From NCBI GenBank assembly GCA_965230305.1, contig OZ245998.1, positions 808,132 through 872,131 of the forward strand: DNA of 64,000 nucleotides, in the 5' to 3' direction. The notes under the pieces are model-generated. The model did not search any database and was not told the DNA's origin. It worked only from the letters and a program-made list of their open reading frames with translations. Made by a program: the position numbers and the translations under genes. Shown one piece after another: positions 2,601 to 26,336 of the stretch. The DNA is from Phycisphaeraceae bacterium (lineage in GTDB: Bacteria > Planctomycetota > Phycisphaerae > Phycisphaerales > Phycisphaeraceae). How positions within the stretch are numbered: position 1 is the first letter of the stretch; each line of letters opens with the position of its first letter.

Positions 2601-3581
2601 TCAGCCGAGCACCGCACCGACGGCGGCGACGGTCTCGGCGTGCAGCTTGCCGTTGGTGGAGATGACGCCCTTGTTGTTCTTCAGCGTCCGCCCAAGCGAG
2701 AAGTCCAGCGGGTTGCCGTGGATGTCGCTGACCTGGCCCCCGGCCTCTTCGAGCACGATCATGCCCGCCGCGTGGTCCCAAATCTTCTCTTCGTAACCCG
2801 GGCGGGTCGGCAGACGCAGGTAGATCGAAGCGTCGCCCCGCGCGACCGCCGCGTACTTGCACTGGCTATCAATCCGGAACGGCTCAGCGGTCGTGCCCAG
2901 GTTCTTCACGATCTGCCCCGAAGCCCCTTGGTCGGTGTGCCCGGATTCCACCGATTCGCACATCACCGCTTGCGACGCGTCTGTGATATTGTCGACTGTG
3001 ACCGTCACCGCGTCCCCGCCGTCGATCGCCTGCATCGTCGCGCCCTGGCCCCGCACCGCGGTCATCAGCACACCGGTGCCGCCGTCGTTGGTCGGCAGGT
3101 TGGGACAACCCAGCACGCCCAGCACGACCTTTCCGTTTTCAATCAGCGCCAGCGCGATCGCGTACTGCTGACCGCGCAGGAAGCCCTTGGTGCCGTCGAT
3201 CGGGTCCAGCGTCCAGAACCGGCCTTCCGGGCCGCCCTGTCCGGTCGCGCCCAGGTCCACCCAGCCCAAGACGTCTTCATCGCTGGCGTCGCCGACCACC
3301 GCTTTGACCTGCTCGACGACCTTGGCCTTGGTCTGGGCGCCCTCGGGGTCGCGCAGGTCCTTGGCGTCCTCCTCACCGACGATCGGGTCGTCCGGGAACG
3401 CCTCGCGGATCGCCTTGCAGACCACGGCCTGGGACGCGAAGTCGGCGACGGTGACCGGGGACTTGTCCTTCTTCTCAAGTGTCGCCGCGGTCACCAGATC
3501 CGCCTGCACCTTCCGGCAGACGGTCGAGGCGGCGGTCACTGCGGCAACGGCAACGTTCAGTTCGTTTTGGAGTTCGCTCAT
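2601..3581 (-). CDS. 3'(2'),5'-bisphosphate nucleotidase (HAL2/SAL1-type, inositol monophosphatase superfamily)
   Basis: Motifs VGEED, WTLDPIDGTKGFLRGQQYAIALALI and WDHAAG are IMPase-fold metal and substrate motifs of HAL2 type. Track ORF extends to 3644. I prefer the MSELQNEL start (residue 22 of the track ORF). Confidence 0.8.
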   Translation of the reverse strand: MSELQNELNVAVAAVTAASTVCRKVQADLVTAATLEKKDKSPVTVADFASQAVVCKAIREAFPDDPIVGEEDAKDLRDPEGAQTKAKVVEQVKAVVGDASDEDVLGWVDLGATGQGGPEGRFWTLDPIDGTKGFLRGQQYAIALALIENGKVVLGVLGCPNLPTNDGGTGVLMTAVRGQGATMQAIDGGDAVTVTVDNITDASQAVMCESVESGHTDQGASGQIVKNLGTTAEPFRIDSQCKYAAVARGDASIYLRLPTRPGYEEKIWDHAAGMIVLEEAGGQVSDIHGNPLDFSLGRTLKNNKGVISTNGKLHAETVAAVGAVLG

Positions 3582-3682
3582 GGCGTCGGATGGTAGCGAA
3601 CCCAGCCGGGCGTTGCCGGGTACAGTCTGAGGATGCCGGGACACACCGTCGAACGCTGGCGAGAAACACCCGCCGACTGTTG

Positions 3683-4549
3683 ATGCTGACCCCTGCGTTG
3701 GGGAGCTGGGTGCTGGTCATTGGGGCCTTCATACAGGCCAGCCAGGACGTTAACGATCTGGTCTACAACACAAACGCTAACAACACAACAATCGATTACT
3801 GGGCGATTGAAGAAGCGATGTTTGCGTTCAGCTACGCGGTGCTCACGATAGGGAGCCTGCTGTTGCTGCTAACCAGCTTCGCGGCCAGGCCACCCACCGC
3901 GTCATGCCGATGGCCCGCTCGATGCGAAGGCTGTGGCTACCGGCTGGGACACCTGACGCTGAACGACTCCTGCCCCGAGTGCGGCAAAGCAGTCAAAGAC
4001 TCGATCGGTGTGCACGCACGCCCGGCCGAGGCGATGCGGCTGGATTCACTGGGCATGGTTTTCTTCAAACCCCAAACGCTCGGCCAACGTCTCCGGGTGT
4101 TTGACCGCAGCCTTTGGCCGATGAACGCCGCCCTAATGGGGCTGGGTCTGCTGGCTCTCGTCGGCATGGCTACACCAATGCTGGGCTCGCTGTGGGTCTC
4201 GATCGTGATGGGCTTCGGGGGCGGCGTGAATTCATTCCGCATCGAGTCGGTCATCAGCTTCACTTTCTTGGGCATGTTGACCTGCAAAGTGACAGGCAAA
4301 GTGGCACCAAATCACGTTGAAATGGCATCAAATTACCAAAGGCGTATCAGCATGTGTCCGTGGGTTTATCCTCGCCAACAGATAGCCACCACACCACACC
4401 CGCCGCCGCCAGCAGCCCAATATCCCGCAGCACCAGCCCCGCGTAACCCGCCGACGCTTCGCTGCCCCCAAAGCAGCCGCAGTCAATATCCAGCCCGCGC
4501 CACCACGCCGACCCGATCGCCACCAGAAACACCACCAGCATCACCGTGA
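3683..4549 (+). CDS. Membrane protein with Zn-ribbon loop (CxxCGY..CPECG)
   Basis: Start taken at MLTPALGSWVLVIGAF (ATG 3683), followed by hydrophobic segments. Zn-ribbon CEGCGYRLGHLTLNDSCPECG at 3923..3985, with more TM segments after it. The last ~200 nt overlap the convergent MauE gene and encode a Pro-rich tail, so the true 3' end is uncertain. Confidence 0.45.
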   Translation: MLTPALGSWVLVIGAFIQASQDVNDLVYNTNANNTTIDYWAIEEAMFAFSYAVLTIGSLLLLLTSFAARPPTASCRWPARCEGCGYRLGHLTLNDSCPECGKAVKDSIGVHARPAEAMRLDSLGMVFFKPQTLGQRLRVFDRSLWPMNAALMGLGLLALVGMATPMLGSLWVSIVMGFGGGVNSFRIESVISFTFLGMLTCKVTGKVAPNHVEMASNYQRRISMCPWVYPRQQIATTPHPPPPAAQYPAAPAPRNPPTLRCPQSSRSQYPARATTPTRSPPETPPASP

Positions 4550-4799
4550 TCAGCCCCAGCGACGCCGCGCGAACCCGCGCCTTGCCCCATCCCACCACGC
4601 ACCCCGCTGCACACACCACCTCCAGCCAGGGCAGGTACCACGCCACCGCCTCCACCGCCCAGCCCGGCAACAGCCGATACCGCTGCACCGACAACGCAAA
4701 CCCCGCCGGGTCCAAAACCTTCACCACCCCCGCATAGCCAAACACACCCGCCAACCCCAGCAACAACCCCCACATCACAACCTTCCGAGCCCACCGCAT
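4347..4799 (-). CDS. MauE/DoxX-family redox-associated membrane protein
   Basis: Four hydrophobic helices. DIDCGCFGG motif is typical of MauE-like proteins. The ATG at 4797..4799 overlaps the rhodanese stop by 1 nt (TGATG). Track ORF extends to 4826. Confidence 0.7.
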   Translation of the reverse strand: MRWARKVVMWGLLLGLAGVFGYAGVVKVLDPAGFALSVQRYRLLPGWAVEAVAWYLPWLEVVCAAGCVVGWGKARVRAASLGLITVMLVVFLVAIGSAWWRGLDIDCGCFGGSEASAGYAGLVLRDIGLLAAAGVVWWLSVGEDKPTDTC

Positions 4800-5368
4800 C
4801 ACCGCCCCTCCCGCGCCCGTGTCCACGCCCGCCAGGCGTCCCAGCCGCCCTCCAGCACGTACACCGCTTCAAACCCGTCCCCGCGCAGTCGCTCCGCCAC
4901 CGCGTCGCTCGCCTCGCACCCCGCACCATCGCAGTACACCACGACCCGTACCCCGTCCTCCCACCGCGACAAAAAATCCAGATACCCCGCCGACCAATCA
5001 TCCTCGCTCAGCCACACCGCGCCCGGCAACGCCTCCGCCTCAAACACATCCCGCCGACGGGCGTCCACCCACAACACCGCTTCGCCCGCCGCCTCCCAGT
5101 CCATCGCCTGCCGCAGCCAGACCCGCCCCGCCGGCAACGGGGCTTGATCCTCTGCGTCCTCCCCTCCATCCCCCAGCCCAACCAACGCCGCATCCCCGGG
5201 CAACAACCCTCCCCCCCCACCACCAACGCCACCACCCTCACCTTGCCCACCATGCCATATCGCTGAGAAACCCGCCGGCAACGCCGCCAACAGCAGCATC
5301 GCCGCCGCCATCCACCACGTCGGAGCCGACCGTTTCAACCATGCACCAGCGTTGGGCGTCTCACTCAT
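4799..5368 (-). CDS. Rhodanese-domain protein with N-terminal membrane anchor and poly-Gly linker
   Basis: TM anchor (WWMAAAMLLLAALPAGFSAIW) and Gly run (GGGVGGGGGGL). Rhodanese core contains the active-site loop VVVYCDGAGCEASD and GWDAWRAW. Confidence 0.75.
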   Translation of the reverse strand: MSETPNAGAWLKRSAPTWWMAAAMLLLAALPAGFSAIWHGGQGEGGGVGGGGGGLLPGDAALVGLGDGGEDAEDQAPLPAGRVWLRQAMDWEAAGEAVLWVDARRRDVFEAEALPGAVWLSEDDWSAGYLDFLSRWEDGVRVVVYCDGAGCEASDAVAERLRGDGFEAVYVLEGGWDAWRAWTRAREGR

Positions 5369-6158
5369 CGACAGATACGTTAGCCGCTTCAGCTTCTAGG
5401 TCCGGCTCCGGAGTGGCCGGGGCTTCCGGGGTGGTCGGGGACTCCGGGGCGTCGCCGATCAGGCGGGCGTAGATCGGGTACAGCCGGGGCTCGTCCTGGC
5501 CGTCGATCGCGATCCGGGCGTGCACCGCGTACACGCCCTCCGCCAGCCCCGGCAAGGGCGTCACCGTCAGCGCCCGGGTGCCGTCTTCATGCTCTCTCAG
5601 CTCAACCGTCAGCGTGTCTTCTTCCACCGGCTCAAGCCCCAGCCAACTCACCCGGTCATCCTCCAGCAGCGTCAGCGTCGCCACCTGCGCTGCCCGGGCC
5701 TGCCCGTCGCGCCACAGCAGCAACCCCGGCTCAGCCCGGATCACTTCGGGAATCACCGTCGTCATCGTCAGCCGAACCCGTGGCTGCTCGGGGTGGTCCG
5801 TGCTGATCACGATCCGCTTGCTCTGCTCGCCGACCCGGTCGCCGACACTGAACGTCACCCGCACCTCTCCCCGCGCCCCGGCCGGGATCACCCGCACATC
5901 CCCCCCGGAAGACTCGGAAGCGGCGGTGGCATCATCACTGTTCAGGACAATCACCGCCGCGGTGCAGCCGCAGGACGAGTCGATGTCGGTGATGGTGAGC
6001 CCCGCCTCGCCGGCGTTCTCAAACGCGAATGCCGATTCGATCACCGCCACCCCGGGCGCCGCCTCGGGCTGCGCCCGGCGGTTGTCAAACTCGAGCTGCG
6101 CCCACGCCGGGCCGGACAGGAACAGAAGAAGAACGATCAGCAGAGCGTATCGATGCAT
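5361..6158 (-). CDS. DUF1573-domain protein (secreted)
   Basis: Signal peptide MHRYALLIVLLLFLSGPAWAQ and the DUF1573 hallmark SSCGCTAA. Start chosen at residue 22 of the track ORF (track end 6221). Confidence 0.7.
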   Translation of the reverse strand: MHRYALLIVLLLFLSGPAWAQLEFDNRRAQPEAAPGVAVIESAFAFENAGEAGLTITDIDSSCGCTAAVIVLNSDDATAASESSGGDVRVIPAGARGEVRVTFSVGDRVGEQSKRIVISTDHPEQPRVRLTMTTVIPEVIRAEPGLLLWRDGQARAAQVATLTLLEDDRVSWLGLEPVEEDTLTVELREHEDGTRALTVTPLPGLAEGVYAVHARIAIDGQDEPRLYPIYARLIGDAPESPTTPEAPATPEPDLEAEAANVSVDE

Positions 6159-6419
6159 GTTGCGACTCTCGTGGGCCACGGAAGGGGGTATCAAAACAGA
6201 GCTTGGATTATACGGACACAAACAGCCCGATTGCCCTGCATGCTTGCAGAATCAAGTTTTTATTTGACGACCTGCAAACTGAAACAAATGGAATGATGGG
6301 TTTCCTTTCTGGATTGCAGGGTTTCCATCTCACAACACAGGGAATGCGCCGCGCAAACAAGGGTTTTCATGAAGGATTCCCTGCAAAGAAATTATGAATC
6401 ACTGGAATCGAAGCCTCAA

Positions 6420-6650
6420 ACACCGATAAATCGAATCGCTCTACCCTGGCGCCTACGGAGAACCCCTAGGCTAGCAGTCGAAAACCCAGGAATCCTTGGC
6501 GCAAACACAGGTTTAACCGACAAATTTCTGGTAGATGGGACATAGCCCATAGGCTTTAACTCGCAACCGGCATGCCGTTGCATCCCAAATCCTCAGCACG
6601 TTGAACATCGTTTCGTGCCAAGACAAATCAATCCCCTTGCGTATCTTCTT
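6420..6650 (-). pseudogene. Degraded fragment resembling the 3' end of the RHS core (orphan/displaced cassette remnant)
   Basis: Exact 17-mer cagcacgttgaacatcg at 6594..6610 equals 8404..8420 inside RHS-B. The - strand translation GIDLSWHETMFNVLRIWDATACRLRVKAYGLCPIYQK parallels RHS-B AAHDAMFNVLGVFKGDG..ERYEYTPYGQRK. After a frame change, PRIPGFSTASLGVL parallels PRNPVGFQGLIHD. Broken by stops at 6513 and 6651. Confidence 0.4.
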
Positions 6651-6772
6651 TCAAAAGAACCTCCGCAGGCAATCATGAATTAGTCCTGCATCCTTCGACC
6701 AAACACGCCGCGAAACGAAACATTCGTGGCTCGCCCAGAACACGAGACTGATCCGTATTTGACTAGGAACAG

Positions 6773-7186
6773 TTAAAATATGATTCCATCAGGGGCTTTG
6801 ATTGCCTCAAAAACCACAAATTCATCTGCACCGCCACCACGCACTAGCCATACATGGATCGTATAACCACTCGACTGCCATGTCGCATAACGAACTTCGG
6901 TATGCTCGTCAACCAAGACTTCCTCCTTCAACCCCCCAATCACATTTGCATGCGATTCACCATCCAAATTCGGATGATTTGATAAAATAAAATAGTCACC
7001 CTTTGAATCAGGCGCACCAAGCAAGCCAACCATTTGGCCCCAAGACAATCCATAGTACGCAGAAACACTCACGGGCCGATGCGAGGCTGGCGATCGAACG
7101 CAAAAGCCAACAAACAAAACCAGCAAAACACTCGTTAAACAAAATCCAGCCCAACTCCAAATTATATATTTATTTTGTATCGCCAT
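6773..7186 (-). CDS. Small membrane-anchored protein, candidate immunity protein for the RHS-B metallopeptidase tip
   Basis: 137 aa with N-terminal TM/signal anchor (IIWSWAGFCLTSVLLVLFVGFCV). Starts 8 nt after the RHS-B stop on the same strand. AT-richer composition like the toxin tip. No family recognised. Confidence 0.55.
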   Translation of the reverse strand: MAIQNKYIIWSWAGFCLTSVLLVLFVGFCVRSPASHRPVSVSAYYGLSWGQMVGLLGAPDSKGDYFILSNHPNLDGESHANVIGGLKEEVLVDEHTEVRYATWQSSGYTIHVWLVRGGGADEFVVFEAIKAPDGIIF

Positions 7187-7194
7187 ACAAAATG

Positions 7195-10100
7195 CTACTC
7201 ATGATAGTGAGCGTAGTACCTGCAGCCCGGATACATTTGATTCAAATCGTCCACCCATTGATCAAAATAGTACGGCCTAAATAGCATGCCGCCCCCCATG
7301 AGCCCATACTGATCAAGGCCATACTCTGGGCCAAGCGGGGGGTTCATCAACTCATGTCCGGGGTGACCAAGCCCTAGCAAATGGCCAATCTCATGGACTG
7401 CTGGCACTTGATTCGACCCCCCCAGCTTAGGCTGCATGTATACATCGTGTTCGTCAAAATACCCATTCGGTCCGCCGAGTTGAGCACTACTGCCATCAAC
7501 AACCCCATTAGGATTCGATCTGACTTCAATCGTCCAGTCGGGATTCCCGGAACCAAAATACAAATCCAAATAAAACTCCCAGCCTTCTTTGCACGGACAG
7601 TCTCGACACTCACGCGTCATCACATAATCCCCAGGATCAATGCCAGGAGCTATTTGCTCTCGCACCAAAACATCATAGGTATCGTTCCGGGGCGTGGCAA
7701 TCATTCCACTGTTCCCAAAATACCACTCGGTGACGCGCTCTAGCCTTCTCCGAAAATTATCCTGCCTACCTTGCGTCCAATTAGGTCTTCCTGGCACATT
7801 AACAAAGACCAATTGAATCTTTTTCTGAATAACACGTCGACAGTTATTCGTATTCGATTCGCCTGAGCTCGTATTCGATCCGCCAGAACCAGGAACGCTA
7901 CCTCCCGTTCCGTCTCCGCCCGGCCATGGAATACTCGGCAATGAAGGTATAGCAGGATGGGGCAAAGAAGGCAATGGAAGCGTGGGGATTGGGAGTTCAC
8001 GCGGAAACGGAAGAGGCAATCCCAATTCAAACAGTCCATAGGGGTCTGCTGTTAAGGAAAGCGCGAAGTACCCTGCGTACAGGCTCTGCCCGTCGATGTA
8101 CTCAAGGGGGTCGCGTTGCATGAACCGGCCCATGCCGGGGTGGTTCATGCGGTTGCGTTGGTAGATCAGCCCGCCGTTGGCGGCGGACTGGGCGGACTGG
8201 TCGTGGATCAGCCCCTGGAAGCCCACGGGGTTGCGGGGCAGGCTGGAGACGCTGAACGACGGGCTGTGGCTGACGGGCTGGTAGAGCAGATCGTCGTTGC
8301 TGCCGCCGGAGACGTAGGTCTTGCGCTGGCCGTAGGGCGTGTACTCGTAGCGTTCGGCGAGGTCGCCGACGCCGCCGGTGCTGCCGTCGCCTTTGAACAC
8401 CCCCAGCACGTTGAACATCGCGTCGTGGGCGGCGTACAGCACTTCAACATTGGCCGAGTTGGCTGAGTCGAAGGCCCCCGTCAGCTCGCTGGTCGTCGGC
8501 GTGGTCGCAGTGAAGTTGCTGATCGCGACGAGCTCGTCGATGTACATCAGGCCCCAGACGAAGAGCTGGCGGGCGTAGTCGCTGCCGCCCCGGGTCTCGA
8601 CGAGCTGCCAATCGCGGTAGAAGTCGTGGGCGTTGCCGTCGTGTCGGCCGGAGTTGGTGACGTGGCGTGAGACCCGGCGGTTGAGGCCGTCGTAGACGTA
8701 GGTCGCCAGGAGCGAGCCCTGGGTGACGTTGTTGGTGGACGGGTCGCGGTAGGCTTTGTGGATGGTGGTGAGGCGGTTCCAGGCGTCGTAGCCGTAGGCG
8801 AACACGCCGTCGTAGGTGAGGTTGCCCGCGGCGTCGTAGGTCGGCCCGGCGTCGCGGCCTTCCATACCGGTGCCGCCCCCGCCGTTGGCGGAGATGTCGA
8901 AGTCTTCCACGTGCTCGATGACGGTGCCGGCGTCGGTGAAGCTGCCGTCGTTGTCGTGGTCGCGTTTGACGGTGACGTTGTCGATGTCGGTGCGGTTGTC
9001 CTGAACGAGGAAGCCGAGTTGGCCGCCGGCGATCGGGATGCTGGTGCTGCGGTAGAAGGGGCTGGCGGAGTTCAAGCCAGCTTCGCTAGCGGCCATACGG
9101 ACTTCAACGAGGTTGGGGCGGACGGTGAGGCGATACCAGAGCGTGCCGTTGCTGGAGTTGACCTGGTTGTTGTTGCCCAAGCTGTTGGCATAGCTGGTAT
9201 TGGCCCCGCCGTTTTCGAAGCGGTTGGCGGTGACACTGGGCGTATAGGTGCCTGAATAGTGGGGCAACCACATGAAGGTCATGGTGTTTCGGTCAAAGGC
9301 GTCGAAGCAGACCCCGAAGCCGCCGTTGAGGGTCGCAGAGAAGGTCATCTCCAGGCCGTCGGATGCGCCGCCTTGGACGCCCTTGAGGAGGATGGCGTGG
9401 CTGGCCCACTCGTTGCGATCGGCCTTGAGGTAGAGGCGGGTTGGCCCAGTGGCGATGCCCATATCCGACTGGGAATCCCAGGCGGACGTGATGTCGGCCT
9501 GCTGGGCGGCGTCGGTGACGCGCCAACGTTTGAACTCGACGCCGCCGGTTTCCGAATACAACCCGACTCGCCCGGGACGCAGCCCCAAGCTACCGAACGG
9601 ATGGCCGGTGCCGCGTTGATTGATCCGCAAGGTCACGGGGGTATTCGCGGTAACCGTCACTGCGAGCGTATGAATGAGCGATACAGACCCGCCGTTGACT
9701 TCGTAGATCCGGCGCTCATCTAAGGCGGCATCCAACACGGCAAGGGTGTAGTTTTGATCGTCCACGTAGTTGTAGACCACCCCTGCGACACCCGATTCTG
9801 CGGCAAACTCAAGGCGTGCATCGATATAGGTTTGTCCAACGACCGCCCCTGCATCACCGAACAGCGCTATCGCCAAGCCATTTCCACCGAGGCCCAATGT
9901 TGCCACACCATCGACCGTATCGACCGAGATGGAATCGTCACCGTCGATCATTTCATAGTCCGAAGCGCTGTTGGCGTCGAAGGTGTCAAATACCAAATCC
10001 ACTGCCCCCCAGCGGCCGGTCACGTCGTACTCGGTGAACTCGTTGGCTTGATTGACCGAGGTCGAGATGTAATCGTTGCCTTGGGGTGTGTCGATCCCGA

Positions 10101-15681: not shown

Positions 15682-16449
15682 TTAGCGGCCATTGAATCCA
15701 GCAGACCGAACCGGCTGGCGCTGTAATTCACGAGGCATCCGCATGACCGAAGCCTCTGCAGTCCGGACGCCGCGTGCCCGTTGAGCGACGTCTTCTGCCA
15801 GCTGTTGGCGTTGGGCGGTGCTGGTCGTGCCGTGGCGCTGGCGCTCCACGCCGGACAAGTTCGTCCGTGGGCCGGCATGGGCCCGAGCCCGCTGAGGGCC
15901 TAGCACGCGTTCCGCCGACTGACCGATCCGCGAGGCGACCCGAGCACGCTCCGCCTGAGCAGACGCCAGTTGCTCCTCCAAACGCGGGATCCTGCGGACT
16001 ACCGATTCATCACGCGGCCCCACCGAGATCTGCCGCTGCGCTTCACGCAGGGCCCGCAATGCGTCTACTTCGGCCTGCTCGGCTTGGGCCAACGCTACAC
16101 GATGCGTTTCGTATGAAGCCACCAAGGCTTCGAGCGCCGCCTCGGTCTGCTCGGGGGAGGCCTCCATGTCCGCCAGATCGGCATTGGTCATCCTCAAACC
16201 CCGGCGGAGCTCCTGCACTTTTTCATACGTCGCCAAGTCCATCGGTTCCGGCGCAGCCAACTCGCGGGCCTGCGCTTGATCGACCTGTTTGGACTGGTAC
16301 TGCAGCGCAGCCCCCAAACCCAATGCCGCTATCGCCGTTGCTGCGGCCACCGCGCCCATCAAGCCGGCTCCTCGACGACGCACAGCCTCTTGAAAACGGG
16401 TTGCGTGCCCCGCGTGTGAACGATGTAATCCCGCATCATCTTTGCGCAT
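15682..16449 (-). CDS. Membrane-anchored coiled-coil protein, first gene of the RHS operon (function unknown)
   Basis: Single TM (LMGAVAAATAIAALGLGAALQY) followed by a long Ala/Glu/Gln/Arg-rich heptad-like region. Lies 59 nt upstream of RHS-A on the same strand. No family recognised. Confidence 0.45.
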   Translation of the reverse strand: MRKDDAGLHRSHAGHATRFQEAVRRRGAGLMGAVAAATAIAALGLGAALQYQSKQVDQAQARELAAPEPMDLATYEKVQELRRGLRMTNADLADMEASPEQTEAALEALVASYETHRVALAQAEQAEVDALRALREAQRQISVGPRDESVVRRIPRLEEQLASAQAERARVASRIGQSAERVLGPQRARAHAGPRTNLSGVERQRHGTTSTAQRQQLAEDVAQRARGVRTAEASVMRMPRELQRQPVRSAGFNGR

Positions 16450-16733: not shown

Positions 16734-18965
16734 ATGCGTAGATCATCGGGGATAAAAGACGACATGCAAACTTCCGGTGCTTATCCCGAGGCTATTAGCG
16801 CAACACCGCCCTCAATTCACACATACCACCCACTTCGAAGCTGGGTCGCGTGTTTGCTGCTGTTTTGCGCTTGCACGCTGCAAGCTGCTGCACAGGGAGA
16901 TACCGCTCCGGATGCGCAAGCGGCTTTGGAACTCAATCTGCCCGAAGAAATCGAGCTTGACCTTCTAGTCCAACTTGCCAGTGATCAACTCGGCCTCAAC
17001 ATCTTGCACGACGAAACACTTCGAGGAAAGCGTGTTTCGCTACGACTGGCTGGGCCGGTGACTCCTGAAGCTTTGCGAGGCATCCTCGAGAGCGCGCTTC
17101 GCGTCAAGGGTATGGCAATGGTCGCGGATGAAAACCCCGGCTGGTGGCGTATCACGCCCGCAGCAGAACTCACCGCTTTGAGCGAGGGACTCCTCGAAGA
17201 CGGGGCTGACATCGAAAATAGATCTCGAGTGATCACCGCGCTGATCCCGGTTGAACATGCGGAGTTATCGCAAGTGCAATCGCTGATCCAACCCTTCCTG
17301 ACGCGGCCCGGCGGTAGCTTGATCGCACTAGAAGCATCGGGCGTCTTAATCGTGACCGACTTCGCGGACCGCGTCACGCGAGCGCAACGCTTAGCCACGC
17401 TGGCGGACCAACCCGGCGAACCGATCCGAGTTGAGCTTCTGCCCGCCACTCATTTGCGCGCCAGCGTGCTGGCCTCACAGGTCAACACCATGCTGCAGAC
17501 CCAAGCGCGCATGCAGGGGCGGGACGACTCAATGATCGAGGTCGGCTTTGTCGACCGCACCAACCAACTGGTGCTGACCGGTTCCGCAGACCGCGTGGCC
17601 GAAGCCATACGGGTGGCCGGGTCGCTGGATGTGCCGCTGGGAGTTTCAACACGGACTTACCAAATGGCTGTCGTCTCTCCACAGCGAGTCGACAGCCTGA
17701 TACGAAGCCTGATCGACCCCATCGATCTCGATCGTATCTACCGGTCTTCGGTCGACGAAGAACTCGGCTGGCTTGTGGTTTCCACCACGCCGGATATCCA
17801 TGCGGAAATTACAACCATCCGTAATGAACTGGACGTTCGAGTAGAGGGCGATCGCGACCCGGTACGGTTCTACCGCCTCCGCAATGCCGGCGCCGACGAA
17901 GTGTTGCGTACGATTCAGGCCATCACACCTTCGACCGGGCTTGACACGGTCGCTTTAGATGGCGCAACTCCCAGCGAAGACAACCTGGACCCGAACACAC
18001 CTGCCGCCATTTCCGGTGTGACCTCCACCATTGACGGCCACACCGCGACCCTCGCGGCAGACATCAACACCAACTCGATCATCGTGATCGCCCCGCCAGC
18101 TACCCAGCAAATATATGCCAAGCTGATCGAACGCCTAGACGAGAGACGTCCACAAGTCCTGATCGAGGTCACCGTCGTGACGCTGGACACGTCCGATGGC
18201 TACTCGGTCGGTGTCGACATTTCACGCTCGGAAACAAACGACGCTGGTCAAATCCTGACTTTCAGTTCGTTCGGCCTCAGCAGCGTCGACCTCGCGACCG
18301 GCGGGCTGGAGCTAATCCCCGGCGTGGGCTTCAACGGTGCCTTGCTCGGTTCAGATATCGCCGACGTCGTGGTCCGTGCGGTCCAGAGCGATTCACGGGC
18401 CGAGGTGGTCGCCGCCCCCAGCCTTCTGGTCAACGACAACGCCGAAGGTCTGATTGTGTCCGAGAGCGAGGCTCCGACCACCAGTATCAACCAAGGCCAG
18501 AACAGCGACACCGTCAGCTTTTCAGGCTTCGTCGGGGCCGGCACCACGGTTAGCGTGCAACCCCGCATCTCCGAAGGCGACCACCTTGCCCTGACGTATT
18601 CGATCGAGCTCAGCACTTTCGACGGCGAGTCCGGCGAAGGCATCCCGCCGCCCCGTCAAACTAACTCCGTTTCCAGCGAAGTCACGATCCCAAACGGCTG
18701 GACGATCGTACTGGGTGGGATCAACCGCAAGGACACCAGCGAAAGTGTGCAGCGTGTCCCTCTGCTCGGGCGGATCCCGGGTGTTGAATACCTCTTCAGT
18801 AACCGCACGGTTAGCGAAAGCGAAACCACACTGTTTGTGTTTATCAAAGCCACAATCCTCCGAGACGATACCTTTGCCGACCTCAGGCACATCAGCGGCC
18901 ACCACCTTGAGTCCGCGGGGGTCCCGGGCGACTGGCCGACCAGTGAACCGATGACCCTGCCGTGA
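16734..18965 (+). CDS. gspD: Type II secretion system secretin GspD
   Basis: Signal peptide (WVACLLLFCACTLQAAAQG) and repeated secretin N-domains. C-terminal secretin core: VLIEVTVVTLDTSDGYSVGVDIS .. VPLLGRIPGVEYLFSNRTVSESETTLFVFIKATILRD. An alternative ATG exists at 16764. Confidence 0.9.
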   Translation: MRRSSGIKDDMQTSGAYPEAISATPPSIHTYHPLRSWVACLLLFCACTLQAAAQGDTAPDAQAALELNLPEEIELDLLVQLASDQLGLNILHDETLRGKRVSLRLAGPVTPEALRGILESALRVKGMAMVADENPGWWRITPAAELTALSEGLLEDGADIENRSRVITALIPVEHAELSQVQSLIQPFLTRPGGSLIALEASGVLIVTDFADRVTRAQRLATLADQPGEPIRVELLPATHLRASVLASQVNTMLQTQARMQGRDDSMIEVGFVDRTNQLVLTGSADRVAEAIRVAGSLDVPLGVSTRTYQMAVVSPQRVDSLIRSLIDPIDLDRIYRSSVDEELGWLVVSTTPDIHAEITTIRNELDVRVEGDRDPVRFYRLRNAGADEVLRTIQAITPSTGLDTVALDGATPSEDNLDPNTPAAISGVTSTIDGHTATLAADINTNSIIVIAPPATQQIYAKLIERLDERRPQVLIEVTVVTLDTSDGYSVGVDISRSETNDAGQILTFSSFGLSSVDLATGGLELIPGVGFNGALLGSDIADVVVRAVQSDSRAEVVAAPSLLVNDNAEGLIVSESEAPTTSINQGQNSDTVSFSGFVGAGTTVSVQPRISEGDHLALTYSIELSTFDGESGEGIPPPRQTNSVSSEVTIPNGWTIVLGGINRKDTSESVQRVPLLGRIPGVEYLFSNRTVSESETTLFVFIKATILRDDTFADLRHISGHHLESAGVPGDWPTSEPMTLP

Positions 18966-20677
18966 CCCGAACCGACACGTCCCAACCCGACCTCCCCGCC
19001 GCCACCCCGCTGGAGCAAGCGCGCGCCAACGGGTTAACCGGCGACGCGTTAGCACGCCACTTGGCGGGCGAGCTGGGACTAGCGTACGACATCGATTTGA
19101 CCGGCAAACCTGCTGCTGCGCGTTTTGTCGAGCGGGTCCCGATCAGCTTCGCCCGGGATAAGCTGGTCTTGGGCTTGGCGGGAGATACCACACAACCCGA
19201 CCGGATGACCCTGGTGCTGGCCGACCCAGTCGACGCACAGACGCCGGACGTGGTCGCGCGCTTTCTCGGCGTACGACTGGAGCTCGTCGTGGCTCCAGCG
19301 GCCCAGCTCCGCGAGGCGATTAATGCCGCCTACCAGAGCCGAACCGGCCTGGCCGCACAGGCGATCGATCGCTTGGCCCAACCCACGATCAAAGCCTCCA
19401 ACCCATCAACCCCGGACAGCGACAACATCGCCCACACCGTCAGCGCGATCCTGAACCGGGAAGACCTCTTGGATAACGCCACCAAGGCCCCGGTCGTCGA
19501 GCTCGCCAACCTGATCCTATTCGAAGCGGTGAAGCAGAATGCCTCGGATGTACACATCCAGCCCTACGAAGACCGCTTGGTGGTCCGCCTCCGGATCGAT
19601 GGCGTGCTGTTCGACGCGTTCGACCTGCCCCAGCGCGTACAAGACGAGCTGATCAGCCGGGTCAAGGTGATGGGGAAGATGGACATCGCCGAGAAACGCC
19701 TGCCGCAAGACGGCCGGGCGACTGTACAGGTCGGCGACCGTGTCATCGACCTCCGGATCGCGTCGCTACCGACTAGCTACGGCGAGCGCGTGGTGATCCG
19801 ACTGCTGGATAAGTCGGTGCGGCGTTACACCCTTGACGAGCTGGGCATGTCCGATCAGACGCTCATCGGCTTCCGTGATCAACTGCGGGTCGAGCATGGC
19901 CTGGCCTTGGTCACCGGCCCAACCGGCAGCGGCAAGTCGACCACGCTCTACGCTGCGCTCCAAGAGATGGACGCCGAACGGCTCAACATCCTCACCCTTG
20001 AAGACCCAATCGAGTACCAATTGGCGGGCGTCAGTCAGACCCAGGTGAACCTCAAGAAAGGGATGACCTTTGCACGCGGGCTGCGCAATGTCCTCCGACA
20101 AGACCCGGACGTGATCATGGTCGGCGAAATCCGCGACCACGAAACTGCGGTCATGGCCATCCAGTCCGCGCTGACCGGGCACCTGGTCTTCTCGACGCTG
20201 CACACCAACGATGCTGCCAGCGCTGTCACACGTCTACTTGACCTGCAGATCGAGCCCTACCTCGTAGCCAGCTCGCTGATCGGCGTGCTGGCGCAGCGTC
20301 TGGTGCGGTGTGTCTGCCGCCGGTGTGCAACGCGTATCCAGCCGGACCTGGACGCCTTGTTAGCCGCCGGACTCACACCTGCAGAAGCAGGTGATCTGCC
20401 CCACATTATGTTGCCAAACCCCGGAGGATGCGAAGCCTGCCGGCATACCGGATACCACCAGCGCATCGGGGTGTTTGAGCTTATGGCAATAAGCGAACCG
20501 ATCCGACAACTCGTCAACGATCGTGCCACCGCTTCGTCAATCAAACAGGCAGCAACTCGACACGGCATGACGACGCTCCGCCAGAGCGGACTCCAACTCG
20601 TTCGCCAGGGCAAAACCACGGTGGAAGAGGTCGTCCGTATCACTGCTCGGTCCGCCACGGACATGGAGGGCGCGTAG
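18962..20677 (+). CDS. gspE: Type II secretion ATPase GspE
   Basis: N-terminal T2SSE_N-like domain and Walker A GPTGSGKST. Asp/His boxes (LRQDPDVIMVGEIRD, TGHLVFSTLHTN). Tetracysteine CVCRRC .. CEACRHTGY. The GTG start overlaps the gspD stop (GTGA). Confidence 0.95.
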   Translation: MTRTDTSQPDLPAATPLEQARANGLTGDALARHLAGELGLAYDIDLTGKPAAARFVERVPISFARDKLVLGLAGDTTQPDRMTLVLADPVDAQTPDVVARFLGVRLELVVAPAAQLREAINAAYQSRTGLAAQAIDRLAQPTIKASNPSTPDSDNIAHTVSAILNREDLLDNATKAPVVELANLILFEAVKQNASDVHIQPYEDRLVVRLRIDGVLFDAFDLPQRVQDELISRVKVMGKMDIAEKRLPQDGRATVQVGDRVIDLRIASLPTSYGERVVIRLLDKSVRRYTLDELGMSDQTLIGFRDQLRVEHGLALVTGPTGSGKSTTLYAALQEMDAERLNILTLEDPIEYQLAGVSQTQVNLKKGMTFARGLRNVLRQDPDVIMVGEIRDHETAVMAIQSALTGHLVFSTLHTNDAASAVTRLLDLQIEPYLVASSLIGVLAQRLVRCVCRRCATRIQPDLDALLAAGLTPAEAGDLPHIMLPNPGGCEACRHTGYHQRIGVFELMAISEPIRQLVNDRATASSIKQAATRHGMTTLRQSGLQLVRQGKTTVEEVVRITARSATDMEGA

Positions 20678-20678
20678 C

Positions 20679-21887
20679 ATGGCCGTCTTCAGCTACAAAG
20701 CAATCGACGCACAGCGTGCCGTACTGGCTGGCACGATCGCCGCGGACACCCCCAAGCAGGCCCGGGATCGGCTGCGTTCACGTGGCCTGACGGTGCATAC
20801 CTTCGACGAGTTGACAAAGCCAAAGAACCCCGGTGCCTGGCGTTTGCGTCGGCAGCGTAAAAAGCATGAAACACAAGTGCTCAGTTTCTGCCGAGAGATG
20901 GCAACCCTGCTGGGCGTAGGCGTCTCGATGCTGGATGCGGTCGACACCGTGCTCAAGCAGGCCAAAGGGTCGTTCCGAAGTACCCTACTACAACTGCGCG
21001 AGCGCATTGCGTCCGGCGGATCACTGGCCGAGGCCATGGGCGATCAACCGGGCGTGTTCGACGAACTGGCGGTGCGGATCATCGAGGTCGGCGAAGAGAC
21101 CGGCCGGCTGGACACGGTGCTGGACGAGTTCGTCGCCTTCCGTGAGAAGAGCGTGCGGCTGAAGAACCACCTGGGGGCAGCGCTGCTCTACCCGATGATC
21201 GTCAGCGCCACCGGACTGGGTGTGGCGATATTCCTGATGACGTTTGTCGTGCCGCAGCTGCTGGAGGGCTTAATCGAGGCCGGTCGTCCCCTGCCGAAAG
21301 TCACGGTGGCGGTGAAAGCGGCCAGCGACCTGCTGATCCACCGGTGGTGGCTGATGCTGGCTCTGTTGGCTGGGCTGTTTGTGCTGCAGGCCGTGGTATT
21401 GGCAACCCCACGTGGGCGCTATGCCTGGCACGCTTTGCTGCTGAAACTCCCGGGGGTCGGAGCGCTAATCCGCAAACAGGCGGTGGTCCGCATTTCGATC
21501 GTCCTGGCCTCGTTGCTGCGCAGCGGCCTGCCGTTCCTACAGGCTTTGGCGGTGACCCGTCGGGCGACGCCGAATCTCGCTCTGCGCCGAGCGCTAGAGC
21601 GATTCGAGCACGACGTGTCGATCGGTCGGGACCTCGGCCAGGCGCTGGACCAGGCCAAAGCCTTTCCGCCAGTGGTCGTCCGAGTCTTCGCCGTTGGCCA
21701 GCAGTCCGGCCGACTCGAAGGGATGCTTGAACGCCTGGCCCACGACTACGACGGCCAGGTTGCCGCGGCTACCAACAAGCTCACCGCACTGCTCGAGCCA
21801 CTGCTCATCATCCTTCTCGCGGTGGTCATCGGCGTCATCGCCCTGGCAACCATCCTGCCCATCCTGGAGGCCGGCCATGTGGTTTGA
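20679..21887 (+). CDS. gspF: Type II secretion inner-membrane platform protein GspF
   Basis: 402 aa with two GspF repeats (EMATLLGVGVSMLDAV / SIVLASLLRSGLPFLQAL) and three TM segments. Sits directly after gspE. Confidence 0.9.
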   Translation: MAVFSYKAIDAQRAVLAGTIAADTPKQARDRLRSRGLTVHTFDELTKPKNPGAWRLRRQRKKHETQVLSFCREMATLLGVGVSMLDAVDTVLKQAKGSFRSTLLQLRERIASGGSLAEAMGDQPGVFDELAVRIIEVGEETGRLDTVLDEFVAFREKSVRLKNHLGAALLYPMIVSATGLGVAIFLMTFVVPQLLEGLIEAGRPLPKVTVAVKAASDLLIHRWWLMLALLAGLFVLQAVVLATPRGRYAWHALLLKLPGVGALIRKQAVVRISIVLASLLRSGLPFLQALAVTRRATPNLALRRALERFEHDVSIGRDLGQALDQAKAFPPVVVRVFAVGQQSGRLEGMLERLAHDYDGQVAAATNKLTALLEPLLIILLAVVIGVIALATILPILEAGHVV

Positions 21888-24531: not shown

Positions 24532-25014
24532 ATGTTCAATCCAACCCCGCGCAACCGAAAACTCCTCTATGCCACCGGCGGGCTCTGCTGGCTATTCGCC
24601 GGCGCAGCACTGGCGTGGGGGCTGACCCGCCAACCCGGCAACAACGTGTCCTCCACAACCGCGCCGCCGAGCAGCAGCAAGCCAGTTGATCAAGCCGAGC
24701 GCCAGACTGCCGATGATCAAACGCCTACGCTCGCGTGGGCCCAACGAGCCGCAAACCTTCGCTGGCAGCGCCCGCTCCACGACCCGCCCCCCCCGCCCGA
24801 GGTGCCGCCCCCGTCTCCGCCCCCGCTGCGCGTGCAGTTGGTCGGCACCATCATGGATGCGAACCAGCCCCAGGCCATGCTCCAGCTGTCCAACGGCCAG
24901 ATCATCTTAGCCAGCATCAATGAGACCCACGAAAACGCTCGCCTGCTCAGCATCCAACCCGACCACGTCACCGTCGAGTACCACGGTCAAACCCTGACCC
25001 TTGAACGCCAATGA
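24532..25014 (+). CDS. GspC-like/PilP-like secretin-interacting protein (no PDZ)
   Basis: N-terminal TM (LLYATGGLCWLFAGAALAWGL) and a Pro-rich linker. A small beta domain follows (LRVQLVGTIMDANQPQAMLQLSNGQIILASINETHENARLLSIQPDHVTVEYHGQTLTL), resembling the GspC HR/PilP fold pattern. Confidence 0.45.
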   Translation: MFNPTPRNRKLLYATGGLCWLFAGAALAWGLTRQPGNNVSSTTAPPSSSKPVDQAERQTADDQTPTLAWAQRAANLRWQRPLHDPPPPPEVPPPSPPPLRVQLVGTIMDANQPQAMLQLSNGQIILASINETHENARLLSIQPDHVTVEYHGQTLTLERQ

Positions 25015-26336
25015 CCCGATCCACCCACAACCTGCAGGTCCCGCACCACGACGGTGAGTCTTGGCAGTGGTTCTACTCAGAGGAAGGGCAACCCCAAACA
25101 TCTTCACTGGGCAACTGGCCAATCGACCACGTCCAGGCCGACGCTGCCGAGCTCGCCAACACGGTCCGCGGCAAGGGATACCACAAACAGCCGATTACTC
25201 TGATGATCCCCTCCAGCTGGTGCCTCAGTGCCGTGGTCGACAAAGCCGGCCTCTCCCGTCGCGACCGTCCAAATGGCCTGAGATACCGCTTTGAAGAGCA
25301 TGTTCCTCTCGCGGCGGAGGAGCTAACCACCGACTTCATCGAATCTAAAAACACCGCCTTAGGCGTAGCAGTGGAATCCCAGCGTGTAAGTACTCTGCTC
25401 GATGCGATGGAATCACAAGGACTCGTGATTGACGCAGTCATCCCCGAAAGCTGGCCCCGACTCGCCCAAGCGCTGAGCAACATCCCCGCCGCACCCGCCA
25501 GCACGCACCTCCTCGTCGTTCAGCACAACGGCCAGATGGACCTTCTGTGGACCCGGTGCCAACAGCCCGTTGCCTGGCTCCACGAACCGACCAGTGCCGA
25601 GTCACTCCGCCTTCACCTGGATCGAACACGCATCGCGCACCATGAAACACCGAAGGTACTCGCGTGGGTCGAGGATATGGAACTACGCTCGGTCATCTCC
25701 GCCGCAACGCAGAGCAACCCGGCAACCTTCCTCAACCCAGGCACCAACACCGAAGCCCTGGCCACAGCATCGCCAGTCAACCTCCGCCGGGACGCGTTAG
25801 CCCCCGATGACCCGTACCGTGCGATCCGAGGGGCGTTACGTTTTGCTGGGCTCGGTCTGGCTGCCGCGCTGACCGCGCTCACCCTGATCGGCCTGACCCA
25901 TATCCAGACGTTCAACACCCAGGCCCAATCCCAACGCGACCAGCAAGCCACAGTCTTCCGCGAGGTGTTTCCTGGCCAGCGCGTGCCCATCGGGATCCAA
26001 AGCCGCCTGCAAAGCGAGTGGTCTCGCCTTCAAGGCGTGCACGGCAACCCAAGCGAATCCGCCGTTCGGCCTGCACAACGCGCCCTACCCATCATGGCCG
26101 CCCTGCTCGAACGTCTCCCTAATGACCTTCGCTACCGCGTCAACGAAACCCGAATCGAGGACAAACGCCTGATCCTCCAAGGCGAAGCCAGAAGCATCCA
26201 GGACGCCGACCAGATCGCCGCCGCCCTGCGCCTGCATCGCGGTTTCCATGTGGACGCCCCGCGTACCGAGCGACTCACCGAGGTTGAAGGTGTGCGCTTC
26301 ACAATCACCGCTGAACCCGTGGAGGCCTCTCCATGA
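25011..26336 (+). CDS. GspL-like assembly protein (cytoplasmic domain, one TM, periplasmic domain)
   Basis: 441 aa with a single TM (FAGLGLAAALTALTLIGLTHI) about two thirds along. Sits between the GspC-like and GspM-like genes. ATGA overlaps at both ends. Confidence 0.5.
   Translation: MTRSTHNLQVPHHDGESWQWFYSEEGQPQTSSLGNWPIDHVQADAAELANTVRGKGYHKQPITLMIPSSWCLSAVVDKAGLSRRDRPNGLRYRFEEHVPLAAEELTTDFIESKNTALGVAVESQRVSTLLDAMESQGLVIDAVIPESWPRLAQALSNIPAAPASTHLLVVQHNGQMDLLWTRCQQPVAWLHEPTSAESLRLHLDRTRIAHHETPKVLAWVEDMELRSVISAATQSNPATFLNPGTNTEALATASPVNLRRDALAPDDPYRAIRGALRFAGLGLAAALTALTLIGLTHIQTFNTQAQSQRDQQATVFREVFPGQRVPIGIQSRLQSEWSRLQGVHGNPSESAVRPAQRALPIMAALLERLPNDLRYRVNETRIEDKRLILQGEARSIQDADQIAAALRLHRGFHVDAPRTERLTEVEGVRFTITAEPVEASP

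Follow-up and report, generated by a model that had tools for sequence, protein, structure and literature searches.

A predicted metzincin-like peptidase tip and a candidate exported immunity protein in an RHS locus of a Phycisphaeraceae bacterium

A 64-kb stretch of contig OZ245998.1 from a Phycisphaeraceae bacterium (the window; all coordinates are window positions) encodes on its reverse strand an RHS/YD-repeat protein of 1451 aa (7195..11550, GTG start, taken from the list of open reading frames) that ends in a predicted metzincin-like zinc peptidase. An open reading frame (ORF) of 137 aa, the candidate immunity protein (6773..7186, reverse strand), begins with ATG 8 nt past the TAG stop codon of the RHS gene. 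With a probability of roughly 0.72, we read this arrangement as a polymorphic RHS toxin locus in which a metzincin-like toxin tip is paired with an exported cognate immunity protein. The reading draws on the anatomy of the sequence, the families to which the tip and its partner belong, the zinc motif and predicted fold of the tip, a break in base composition and the order of the genes. An initial annotation of this DNA had reported DPYGL at the RHS core end, the motif HEIGHLLGLGH, a tail of 278 aa and the 137-aa ORF 8 nt after the stop, and every one of these coordinates checked out.

The RHS protein ends in a predicted zinc-peptidase tip

The 1451-aa protein matched the Pfam model RHS_repeat over five stretches (E=2.1e-9, 37.9 bits against a cutoff of 22), and the RHS core model TIGR03696 aligned below its threshold at aa 1090-1159 (22.8 versus 32.5 bits). 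The core ends, as read from the translation, with DPYGL (aa 1169-1173, 8032..8046, reverse strand), and the preceding GMGRFMQRDPLEYIDGQSLYAGYFALSLTADPYGL fits an RHS core end. In RHS and TcC proteins, the tip is set free when the protein cleaves itself at DPxGL by aspartyl autoproteolysis; by analogy, DPYGL would be the site of such a cleavage here. Exactly 278 aa follow DPYGL to the end of the protein. They comprise a Pro/Gly/Ser-rich linker of 63 aa (7843..8031, reverse strand), in which the Pro/Gly linker of the initial annotation is recovered with 14 Pro, 10 Gly and 9 Ser, and a domain of 215 aa (aa 1237-1451, 7198..7842, reverse strand) that a family hidden Markov model (HMM) and an AlphaFold model predict to be a metzincin-like zinc protease. 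In relatives, DPxGL typically lies 10-14 aa ahead of the tip domain, whereas here the domain begins 68 aa after DPYGL, and the 63-aa linker is missing from most RHS-linked relatives. The linker consists of LPxP-like repeats followed by a GGS-rich stretch, a build that is unusual within the tip family.

The domain contains HEIGHLLGLGH (aa 1386-1396, 7363..7395, reverse strand), with H1386, H1390 and H1396 as proposed zinc ligands and E1387 as the proposed catalytic residue, and the pattern HExxHxxGxxH occurs only this once across all six frames of the window. An exhaustive HMMER search of 1.84 billion representatives yielded 142 family proteins at E<=1e-3 (clusters at 50% identity), 40 of which reached E<=1e-10. 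The family domain is about 210 aa long, corresponding to the last 215 aa of the window protein, and ends no more than 15 aa from the C-terminus in 122 of the 142 representatives. It occurs in two N-terminal contexts, namely RHS/YD repeats ending in DPxGL or the domain PF13699 eCIS_core (formerly DUF4157, "PVC-metallopeptidase"), which was matched in relatives with E-values of 1e-28 to 1e-33. Hosts belong to Planctomycetota, Lentisphaerota, Kiritimatiellia, Acidobacteriota, Actinomycetota and other groups. A word-indexed homologue search returned no match with the tip itself and only 11 proteins with the family profile; the tip also had no match by tblastn in a plasmid collection and nothing relevant in PHROGs. 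Two loci, L006 and L007, were rejected as family members because they are ordinary serralysins. In another locus, a distant family member (PAVHEFGHMLGLRDEY; L021 914..1675) lies directly downstream of the C-terminus of a ClpB/ClpV-like ATPase (L021 1..714), which hints that some relatives are linked to type VI secretion systems (T6SS).

The zinc motif is retained throughout the family: among 141 sequences, H1386 and E1387 are each kept in 139, H1390 in 138, G1393 in 132, H1396 in 134 and P1397 in 135. The initial annotation had taken PGHELMNPP, directly after the motif, for the Met-turn, and this assignment did not survive the family alignment. The spacing of ELMNPP (Met = aa 1402, 7336..7353, reverse strand) aligns with the ALMYP of matrix metalloproteinase (MMP) 8 in the profile alignment, and in relatives the column of this Met is occupied by P, A, N, S or a gap. 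The conserved Met lies 16 residues further on, in LMG (aa 1417-1419, 7294..7302, reverse strand), 22 residues past the third His, H1396. Within this LMGxG block the Leu is kept in 125 of 141 sequences, M1418 in 133 (with Leu in six more) and the Gly in 136, and on this conservation M1418 is most likely the Met-turn. Four Cys are recurrent as well. Those of a CPC motif (C1318 and C1320, 7591..7599, reverse strand) are kept in 77 and 83 of the roughly 98 sequences aligned at that column, the C-terminal one, which stands in a GC pair (C1443, 7222..7224, reverse strand), in 70 of 108, and the N-terminal one (C1237, 7840..7842, reverse strand) in 18 of 31. They may form disulfides or a structural zinc site.

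Structural model and profile searches point to metzincins

Metzincins combine HExxHxxGxxH/D with a Met-turn under the metal site, a five-stranded sheet and helices A, B and C. In matrixins the third His is followed by Ser and, about 8 residues on, by an ALMYP Met-turn, and a cysteine-switch prodomain is present; serralysins carry an SxMSY Met-turn with a Tyr zinc ligand and a C-terminal RTX domain. AlphaFold2, run on the tip with a 26-sequence family alignment, gave a model with a mean predicted local distance difference test score (pLDDT) of 88.7 and a predicted template modelling score (pTM) of 0.82. The order of elements in the model is a strand, a long helix A, several strands, a short helix B with HExxH, the Met loop, a C-terminal helix and a final strand. 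The LMG block was modelled at a pLDDT of about 89 and the ELMNPP loop, the sole low-confidence loop of the model, at 55-68. When the model was compared with the PDB by Foldseek, the top 50 matches were metzincins only (karilysin first, and MMP-3/7/2/13/20, adamalysins, ADAMs and fragilysin), with probabilities up to 1.0 and a best E-value of about 8e-4, and among the viral predicted structures of BFVD viral MMP-like proteases came out on top.

Among PDB sequences, the tip aligned with MMP-12 (E=6.5e-4 over 44 aa); the aligned region takes in the GGxxxFDE strand-loop ahead of the active-site helix, so the likeness is not confined to the motif itself. The family profile matched MMP-8 (2.7e-5), serralysins (2.9e-5), MMP-12, MMP-13 and archaemetzincin in the PDB and nothing outside the clan. 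Pfam at E<=1 gave only Peptidase_M10, Reprolysin_3, Peptidase_M54 and Metallopep for the tip, all below cutoff; for Peptidase_M10 (PF00413) the tip scored 18.6 bits against a cutoff of 24, and other family members 13-21 bits. NCBIfam gave weak serralysin and archaemetzincin matches around the motif (NF035945, 14 bits against a cutoff of 500). The tip family reaches no Pfam or NCBIfam threshold.

The features shared with M10 metzincins are HExxHxxGxxH, the (G)xxxFDExE strand-loop, a conserved Met downstream and the order of sheet and helices A, B and C. The tip differs from them in the position of this Met, which lies 22 residues after the third His in LMGxG rather than in ALMYP or SxMSY and without Tyr, in the lack of a cysteine-switch prodomain, RTX or hemopexin domain, in its four recurrent Cys (C...CPC...C), in an extra beta-hairpin at domain residues 58-78, and in being the C-terminal cargo of RHS or eCIS_core proteins. 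The initial annotation had called the tip matrixin-like. The resemblance stands; membership in the matrixin family does not, with a score below the Pfam cutoff and Pro instead of Ser after the third His. A true matrixin was rejected on that score, on the Pro in 135 of 141 sequences and on the missing cysteine switch, no PRCGxPD-like motif being present in the linker. A serralysin was rejected as well, given 14 versus 500 bits, LMGxG without the Tyr that serralysins and astacins have in their Met-turn, and a domain that ends the protein; Pro after the third His is the sole feature in common. We conclude from the profiles and the model that the tip is probably a divergent metzincin-like peptidase, closest to MEROPS M10. 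This agrees with the metzincin assignment made initially: no motif position is kept in fewer than 132 of 141 sequences, the family profile and AlphaFold/Foldseek give metzincins only, and the fold and HMM searches proposed as a check predict a metzincin-type fold.

Small exported partners follow the tip in RHS-linked loci

The product of the 137-aa ORF has a 23-residue hydrophobic stretch near its N-terminus (aa 8-30), an anchor or signal, and behind it a domain of about 100 aa. It had no match in Pfam, NCBIfam, PHROGs or the PDB, none in the word-indexed search and none by tblastn in the plasmid collection, and the initial annotation was right to leave both the tip and this ORF outside named families. 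A single-sequence AlphaFold model (pLDDT 60) consisted of a helix at residues 3-31 and a beta-rich domain of low confidence, and a fold search with this pLDDT 60 model returned nothing significant. A BamE/BLIP-like motif (G-x-x-x-x-x-V-x-x-x-x-G-x-P) was considered for the ORF and is not claimed, being unsupported with that fold search empty.

Downstream ORFs were compared in 10 RHS-linked loci fetched from genomes and metagenomes. In all 10, a small ORF whose product has either a lipobox or a hydrophobic anchor at its N-terminus lies directly downstream of the tip. A lipobox-type Cys is present in the partners of L004 (180 aa, IVGC), L011/L017 (106 aa, LISC), L019 (119 aa, VVGC), L023 (123 aa, SVGC) and L025 (180 aa, VAGC), as well as in those of L024 (IVGC) and L026 (FSGC), which are both cut off by a contig end. 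The partners of L002 (134 aa), L013/14/15 (127 aa) and L012/16 (67 aa) have a hydrophobic anchor. For relatives in the eCIS_core context, the next gene is another eCIS_core gene, and there is no such small partner.

The window ORF aligned with the L023 partner with a Smith-Waterman score of 48, compared to 24.2 +/- 4.2 for shuffled sequences (p=7e-4, 3000 shuffles), and the alignment reaches their common last residue (DEHTEV...WL...P-G--F versus DENTEV...WL...P-G--F). The partners of L013 and L023 are also similar (Smith-Waterman p=0.0013), and a three-sequence HMM additionally detected the L019 partner (E=0.0024) among all ORFs of the fetched loci. When the window ORF is aligned with the L023, L019 and L013-15 partners, a common pattern emerges. 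By these alignments the window ORF appears to be a real gene of a small partner family that is tied to the tip family, with homologous partners in three loci. A single family comprising all partner ORFs was rejected, as most pairs have no similarity.

The membrane-anchored, outward-facing cognate partner that had been proposed initially finds its counterpart in the exported small ORF of all 10 loci and in the homology of the window ORF to three of these partners. The outward orientation is deduced mainly from the lipoprotein partners of relatives and not from the charges flanking the hydrophobic segment of the window ORF itself. The comparison supports well that the 137-aa ORF encodes a putative exported immunity protein.

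In L002 (Lentisphaerae bacterium WC36, CP085689.1), positions 3146..7878 hold orphan RHS C-terminal fragments, each followed by a small anchored ORF. The first of these cassettes has a metzincin-like tip and the next two have unrelated tips, which is a classic tip/immunity array in a genome of 30% GC.

Base composition changes at DPYGL

A low-GC segment was located by a two-breakpoint likelihood fit over 3000..12000. The block so defined, 6120..8060, comprises the linker, the tip, the partner ORF and about 550 nt of non-coding DNA, has a GC content of 0.485 compared to 0.644 outside (log-likelihood gain of 80) and is the lowest-GC 1.8-kb stretch in the entire window. Its right-hand breakpoint is no more than 15-30 nt away from the DPYGL codons. 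GC content at third codon positions (GC3) was 0.84 in the RHS core, 0.43 in the linker, 0.49 in the tip and 0.40 in the 137-aa ORF, and 0.73 in a 1320-aa YD-repeat ORF that lies upstream of the tip-bearing gene.

The AT-richer stretch that the initial annotation had placed at about 8040 to about 6220 is thus recovered by computation, with a sharp edge at DPYGL. A profile of GC and codon usage across this boundary had been set beforehand as a test that could refute a cassette, and a break was found there, GC3 falling from 0.84 to 0.43-0.49. The exchanged AT-rich cassette suggested at the outset is further backed by the occurrence of the same tip family on unrelated N-terminal scaffolds.

Beyond the partner ORF, 6222..6772 is a low-GC stretch of about 550 nt next to a DUF1573 gene, with no ORF longer than 58 aa, and scans of 5800..8200 for Rfam families, promoters and terminators gave nothing above chance. 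The stretch may be the remnant of a decayed tip/immunity cassette or may belong to the DUF1573 gene as its upstream region.

The RHS gene is split and adjoins type II secretion genes

The 1320-aa YD-repeat protein (11660..15622, reverse strand, from the ORF list) has its own signal peptide and represents the N-terminal half of a split RHS of which the tip-bearing protein is the C-terminal half. By BLAST, aa 1006-1316 of the upstream protein align to residues 1107-1420 of the single-chain relative P0064 and aa 8-482 of the downstream protein to its residues 1421-1912, and the same colinearity exists with the single-chain P0066, in which the upstream alignment runs to residue 943 and the downstream one resumes at 951. 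The two YD ORFs are, on these alignments, colinear halves of one RHS, and two independent paralogues were rejected because of this colinearity with single-chain RHS proteins.

The junction (11473..11659, reverse strand) holds about 165 extra nt compared to homologues, which have only about 10-15 residues there. It contains the upstream stop codon, a GC-rich hairpin (CCGTTGCC-N11-GGCAACGG) with TTTTGG after it, the GTG start and a signal/lipobox-like peptide, MKHLPILTCASSFGLALLAC, so that each RHS half begins with its own signal peptide. Instead of a pseudogene, the split RHS may represent a TcB/TcC-like cocoon that is naturally made in two pieces.

A type II secretion system (T2SS) operon lies about 1 kb upstream of the RHS pair and is transcribed divergently from it. 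It includes GspD, GspE and GspF (16734..21887, forward strand; Pfam Secretin 2e-33, T2SSE 5.5e-129, T2SSF 1.8e-52) and a GspL-like gene (25011..26336, forward strand; GspL_C 2.8e-4). Neither RHS half has a PAAR or VgrG Pfam domain, and no T6SS genes were found among the subset of window ORFs scanned. The signal peptides and the T2SS neighbours, together with the absence of PAAR and VgrG from the RHS halves, suggest a Sec plus T2SS export route. In the terms of Zhang et al. (PMC3482391), the locus falls into the signal-peptide ("T2SS") class of RHS toxins.

The scanned neighbours of the RHS pair comprise the type II secretion genes, a porin and the DUF1573, rhodanese and MauE genes. The latter three (5361..6221 with a probable start near 6158, 4799..5368 and 4347..4826, all on the reverse strand) form a high-GC trio downstream of the cassette and resemble an envelope redox module that is unrelated to it. 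Between the T2SS operon and the RHS pair, a 255-aa ORF (15682..16449, reverse strand) without a Pfam match has one predicted transmembrane segment and a long Ala/Glu/Arg-rich region that is coiled-coil-like. Within the YD-repeat shell of the tip-bearing protein, an insert of about 400 aa (aa 483-905, 8836..10104, reverse strand) looks beta-rich and takes the place of only 65-96 aa in the colinear relatives P0064 and P0066. It had no Pfam match at E<=5 and no PDB sequence match at E<=1, and may be a receptor-binding or surface domain.

Proposed mechanism and alternative explanations

In the mechanism that we propose, the last 278 aa would act as an exchangeable module of a Pro/Gly linker and a 215-aa zinc endopeptidase, in which H1386, H1390 and H1396 would hold the zinc, E1387 would serve as general base and M1418 would form the Met-turn. 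The YD-repeat shell, possibly made from two Sec-exported halves, would enclose the tip, which autoproteolysis at DPYGL would release within this enclosure. With their Sec-type signals, the shell proteins would cross the periplasm and possibly travel onward via the adjacent type II secretion system, and the protease would cleave envelope or extracellular proteins of a target cell. The product of the 137-aa ORF, anchored in or exported across the inner membrane, would block the protease extracytoplasmically and protect the producer and its kin. That the toxin-bearing protein passes through the producer's own periplasm would suffice to explain an exported inhibitor.

Several observations weigh against this reading. 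The structural similarity of the tip model to solved metzincins is distant (template modelling scores of 0.3-0.43, root-mean-square deviations of 7-10 A), and at the sequence level only some 60 residues surrounding the active site are similar. The RHS gene is in two pieces, a possible sign of a decaying locus, and the link to type II secretion consists of adjacency only. Partner ORFs of different loci are mostly unrelated to each other, no called gene in the protein collection encodes exactly the 137-aa product, and the charges flanking the hydrophobic segment of this product are balanced (K6 versus R31 and R37), which makes the orientation ambiguous. In addition, the L002 partner of an unrelated RHS tip is N-terminally anchored too, so that an exported partner is not specific to this toxin.

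The best of the alternatives, which we consider unlikely, is a metzincin secreted to act on eukaryotic or extracellular substrates such as prey, host matrix or nutrient proteins instead of on bacterial competitors. The ORF product would then be no immunity protein in the toxin-antitoxin sense but an inhibitor for latency or self-protection comparable to the potempins, which would shield the producer's envelope during the passage of the protease through the periplasm. Many relatives sit on eCIS_core/DUF4157 proteins without a partner gene, and eukaryotes are frequent targets of the toxins of extracellular contractile injection systems (eCIS), which often come without immunity genes; the closest folds belong to enzymes that degrade extracellular matrix; the RHS halves with Sec signals adjoin a T2SS, which is a route for free secreted enzymes; and in the potempins a small lipoprotein inhibitor is co-encoded with secreted peptidases, one of them MMP-like. 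An RHS scaffold, a sharp cassette break and tip/partner arrays such as that of L002 are instead hallmarks of interbacterial polymorphic toxins. This alternative differs from the polymorphic toxin reading only in the target, the partner being an outer-side protease inhibitor in both.

Quite improbable, in our judgement, is a decaying remnant in which the RHS is broken, the tip is undelivered and the 137-aa ORF either arose by chance or encodes an unrelated small membrane protein. The insertion of about 165 nt, with its stop codon and hairpin, does split the RHS, but each half is still a long and intact ORF, of 1320 and 1451 aa, and GC3 is high in the two (0.73 and 0.84), and the downstream half starts with a well-formed signal/lipobox-like peptide and not with random sequence. 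Decay would also accommodate an ORF product that is missing from the record of called genes and the low-GC non-coding DNA of about 550 nt behind it, and the expected count of chance ORFs of at least 137 codons in this low-GC kilobase is about 0.05, estimated from stop-codon frequency; against this, the catalytic and structural motifs of the tip are all intact and the ORF has homologues at the same position in three other loci. Hardly credible is a tip that is not a toxin but a catalytically silent metzincin-like binding module or a peptidase that processes the RHS itself: some metallopeptidase domains in toxin proteins are releasing peptidases (Zhang et al., PMC3482391) and one DUF4157 toxin is toxic independently of its HExxH motif, but RHS aspartyl autoproteolysis at DPxGL already frees the tip without need of an extra peptidase, 122 of 142 relatives have the domain in the terminal toxin position, and about 98% of relatives retain the zinc ligands and the catalytic Glu, pointing to selection on catalysis.

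The architecture of the polymorphic toxin locus proposed here is as expected for RHS toxins and overturns no current idea. RHS toxins with HExxH peptidase tips and periplasm-acting metallopeptidase effectors with exported immunity are both already known kinds. New are the metzincin-type domain family, which neither Pfam nor NCBIfam contains, the consistent pairing of its members with exported partners and the small partner family; literature searches for metzincins with Rhs, or for HExxHxxGxxH with immunity, found no relevant paper. It is conceivable, if doubtful, that the locus holds founding members of two new families, namely envelope-acting metzincin toxins shuttled between RHS and eCIS scaffolds and exported proteinaceous metzincin inhibitors, on a split RHS cocoon exported by Sec and T2SS. 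If this were true, RHS proteins would have a delivery route independent of T6SS, type VII secretion systems and toxin complex (Tc) assemblies, and the partners would represent a novel type of proteinaceous metzincin inhibitor. Among polymorphic toxins, no class is less understood than the peptidase tips, of which only a few, such as VgrG2b and Rhs-M91, have been tested; the exported or lipoprotein signature of the partners predicts that the toxin acts outside the cytoplasm. If confirmed, the locus would offer a tractable toxin-inhibitor pair from under-studied phyla and a handle on protease-vulnerable envelope proteins.

Comparison with known systems

In the TcB/TcC proteins of Tc toxins, a YD-repeat shell is built from the products of two adjacent genes, the second of which has the core end and a variable tip. 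The window locus has the same two-gene layout, with the core end and the toxin tip on the second gene. It differs in that the two halves have no Pfam match except RHS_repeat, and so no TcB-type domains, in that they are colinear with single-chain RHS proteins, and in that each half has its own signal peptide.

One C-terminal module common to RHS and PVC/eCIS scaffolds is the polymorphic toxin pattern described by Zhang et al. 2012 (PMC3482391), and the contexts of the tip family also match the eCIS toxin patterns of Geller et al. and Danov et al.; eCIS toxins have been described as lacking partner immunity genes. Metallopeptidase tips of the Tox-MPTase1-5, HopH1-like and ALF-like kinds are catalogued in PMC3482391, where no immunity protein is listed for the Tox-MPTase families, and the Rhs-M91 effector SED_RS06335 of Salmonella Dublin carries a peptidase tip on an RHS protein (PMC13556075). 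All of these share with the window tip a zincin HExxH peptidase as C-terminal RHS toxin, and the Tox-MPTase group shares in addition the trafficking by signal peptide ("T2SS") or PVC/eCIS and the presence of the module on RHS and DUF4157 scaffolds. By description, the catalogued Tox-MPTase families are small Wss1-like zincins with a plain HExxH, whereas the window tip has the metzincin extension and Met, and its family comes with a partner family. Tox-MPTase2-5 and the other Pfam peptidase-toxin models gave no match on the tip at E<=1 beyond the four generic sub-threshold families. The tip family may correspond to the Tox-MPTase1 of the catalogue.

Potempins of Tannerella forsythia are lipoprotein inhibitors of 98-132 aa that are co-encoded with secreted peptidases, including the MMP-like karilysin (PMC9890683). 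They resemble the window pair as small lipoprotein inhibitors beside secreted peptidases, and karilysin, which pairs with PotA (PDB 8b2q), is the top fold match of the tip. Together with VgrG2b and PA0261, they are the nearest functional analogues that have been studied by experiment, and neither system has a sequence relation to the window proteins. Potempin genes lie upstream of free secreted proteases, whereas the 137-aa ORF lies downstream of an RHS tip, and the partner-family profile found no PotA sequence among PDB chains.

The C-terminal metallopeptidase of VgrG2b from Pseudomonas aeruginosa is toxic only in the periplasm and loses its toxicity in the E936A variant (Wood et al. 2019, PMC6899460). 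It is neutralised by PA0261, which needs its signal peptide, and the relatives of PA0261 are lipoproteins, except for one that has an N-terminal transmembrane helix instead (PMC6899460). VgrG2b carries a DUF4157-type zincin on a T6SS spike, whereas the window tip is metzincin-like and sits on an RHS protein with Sec signals, and PA0261 has no sequence relation to the 137-aa ORF, for which there is no Pfam or PDB match. The two systems would have in common a metallopeptidase toxin that acts outside the cytoplasm, which in the window we infer, and immunity proteins that occur in lipoprotein and transmembrane-anchored variants, as do the partner ORFs of the tip family.

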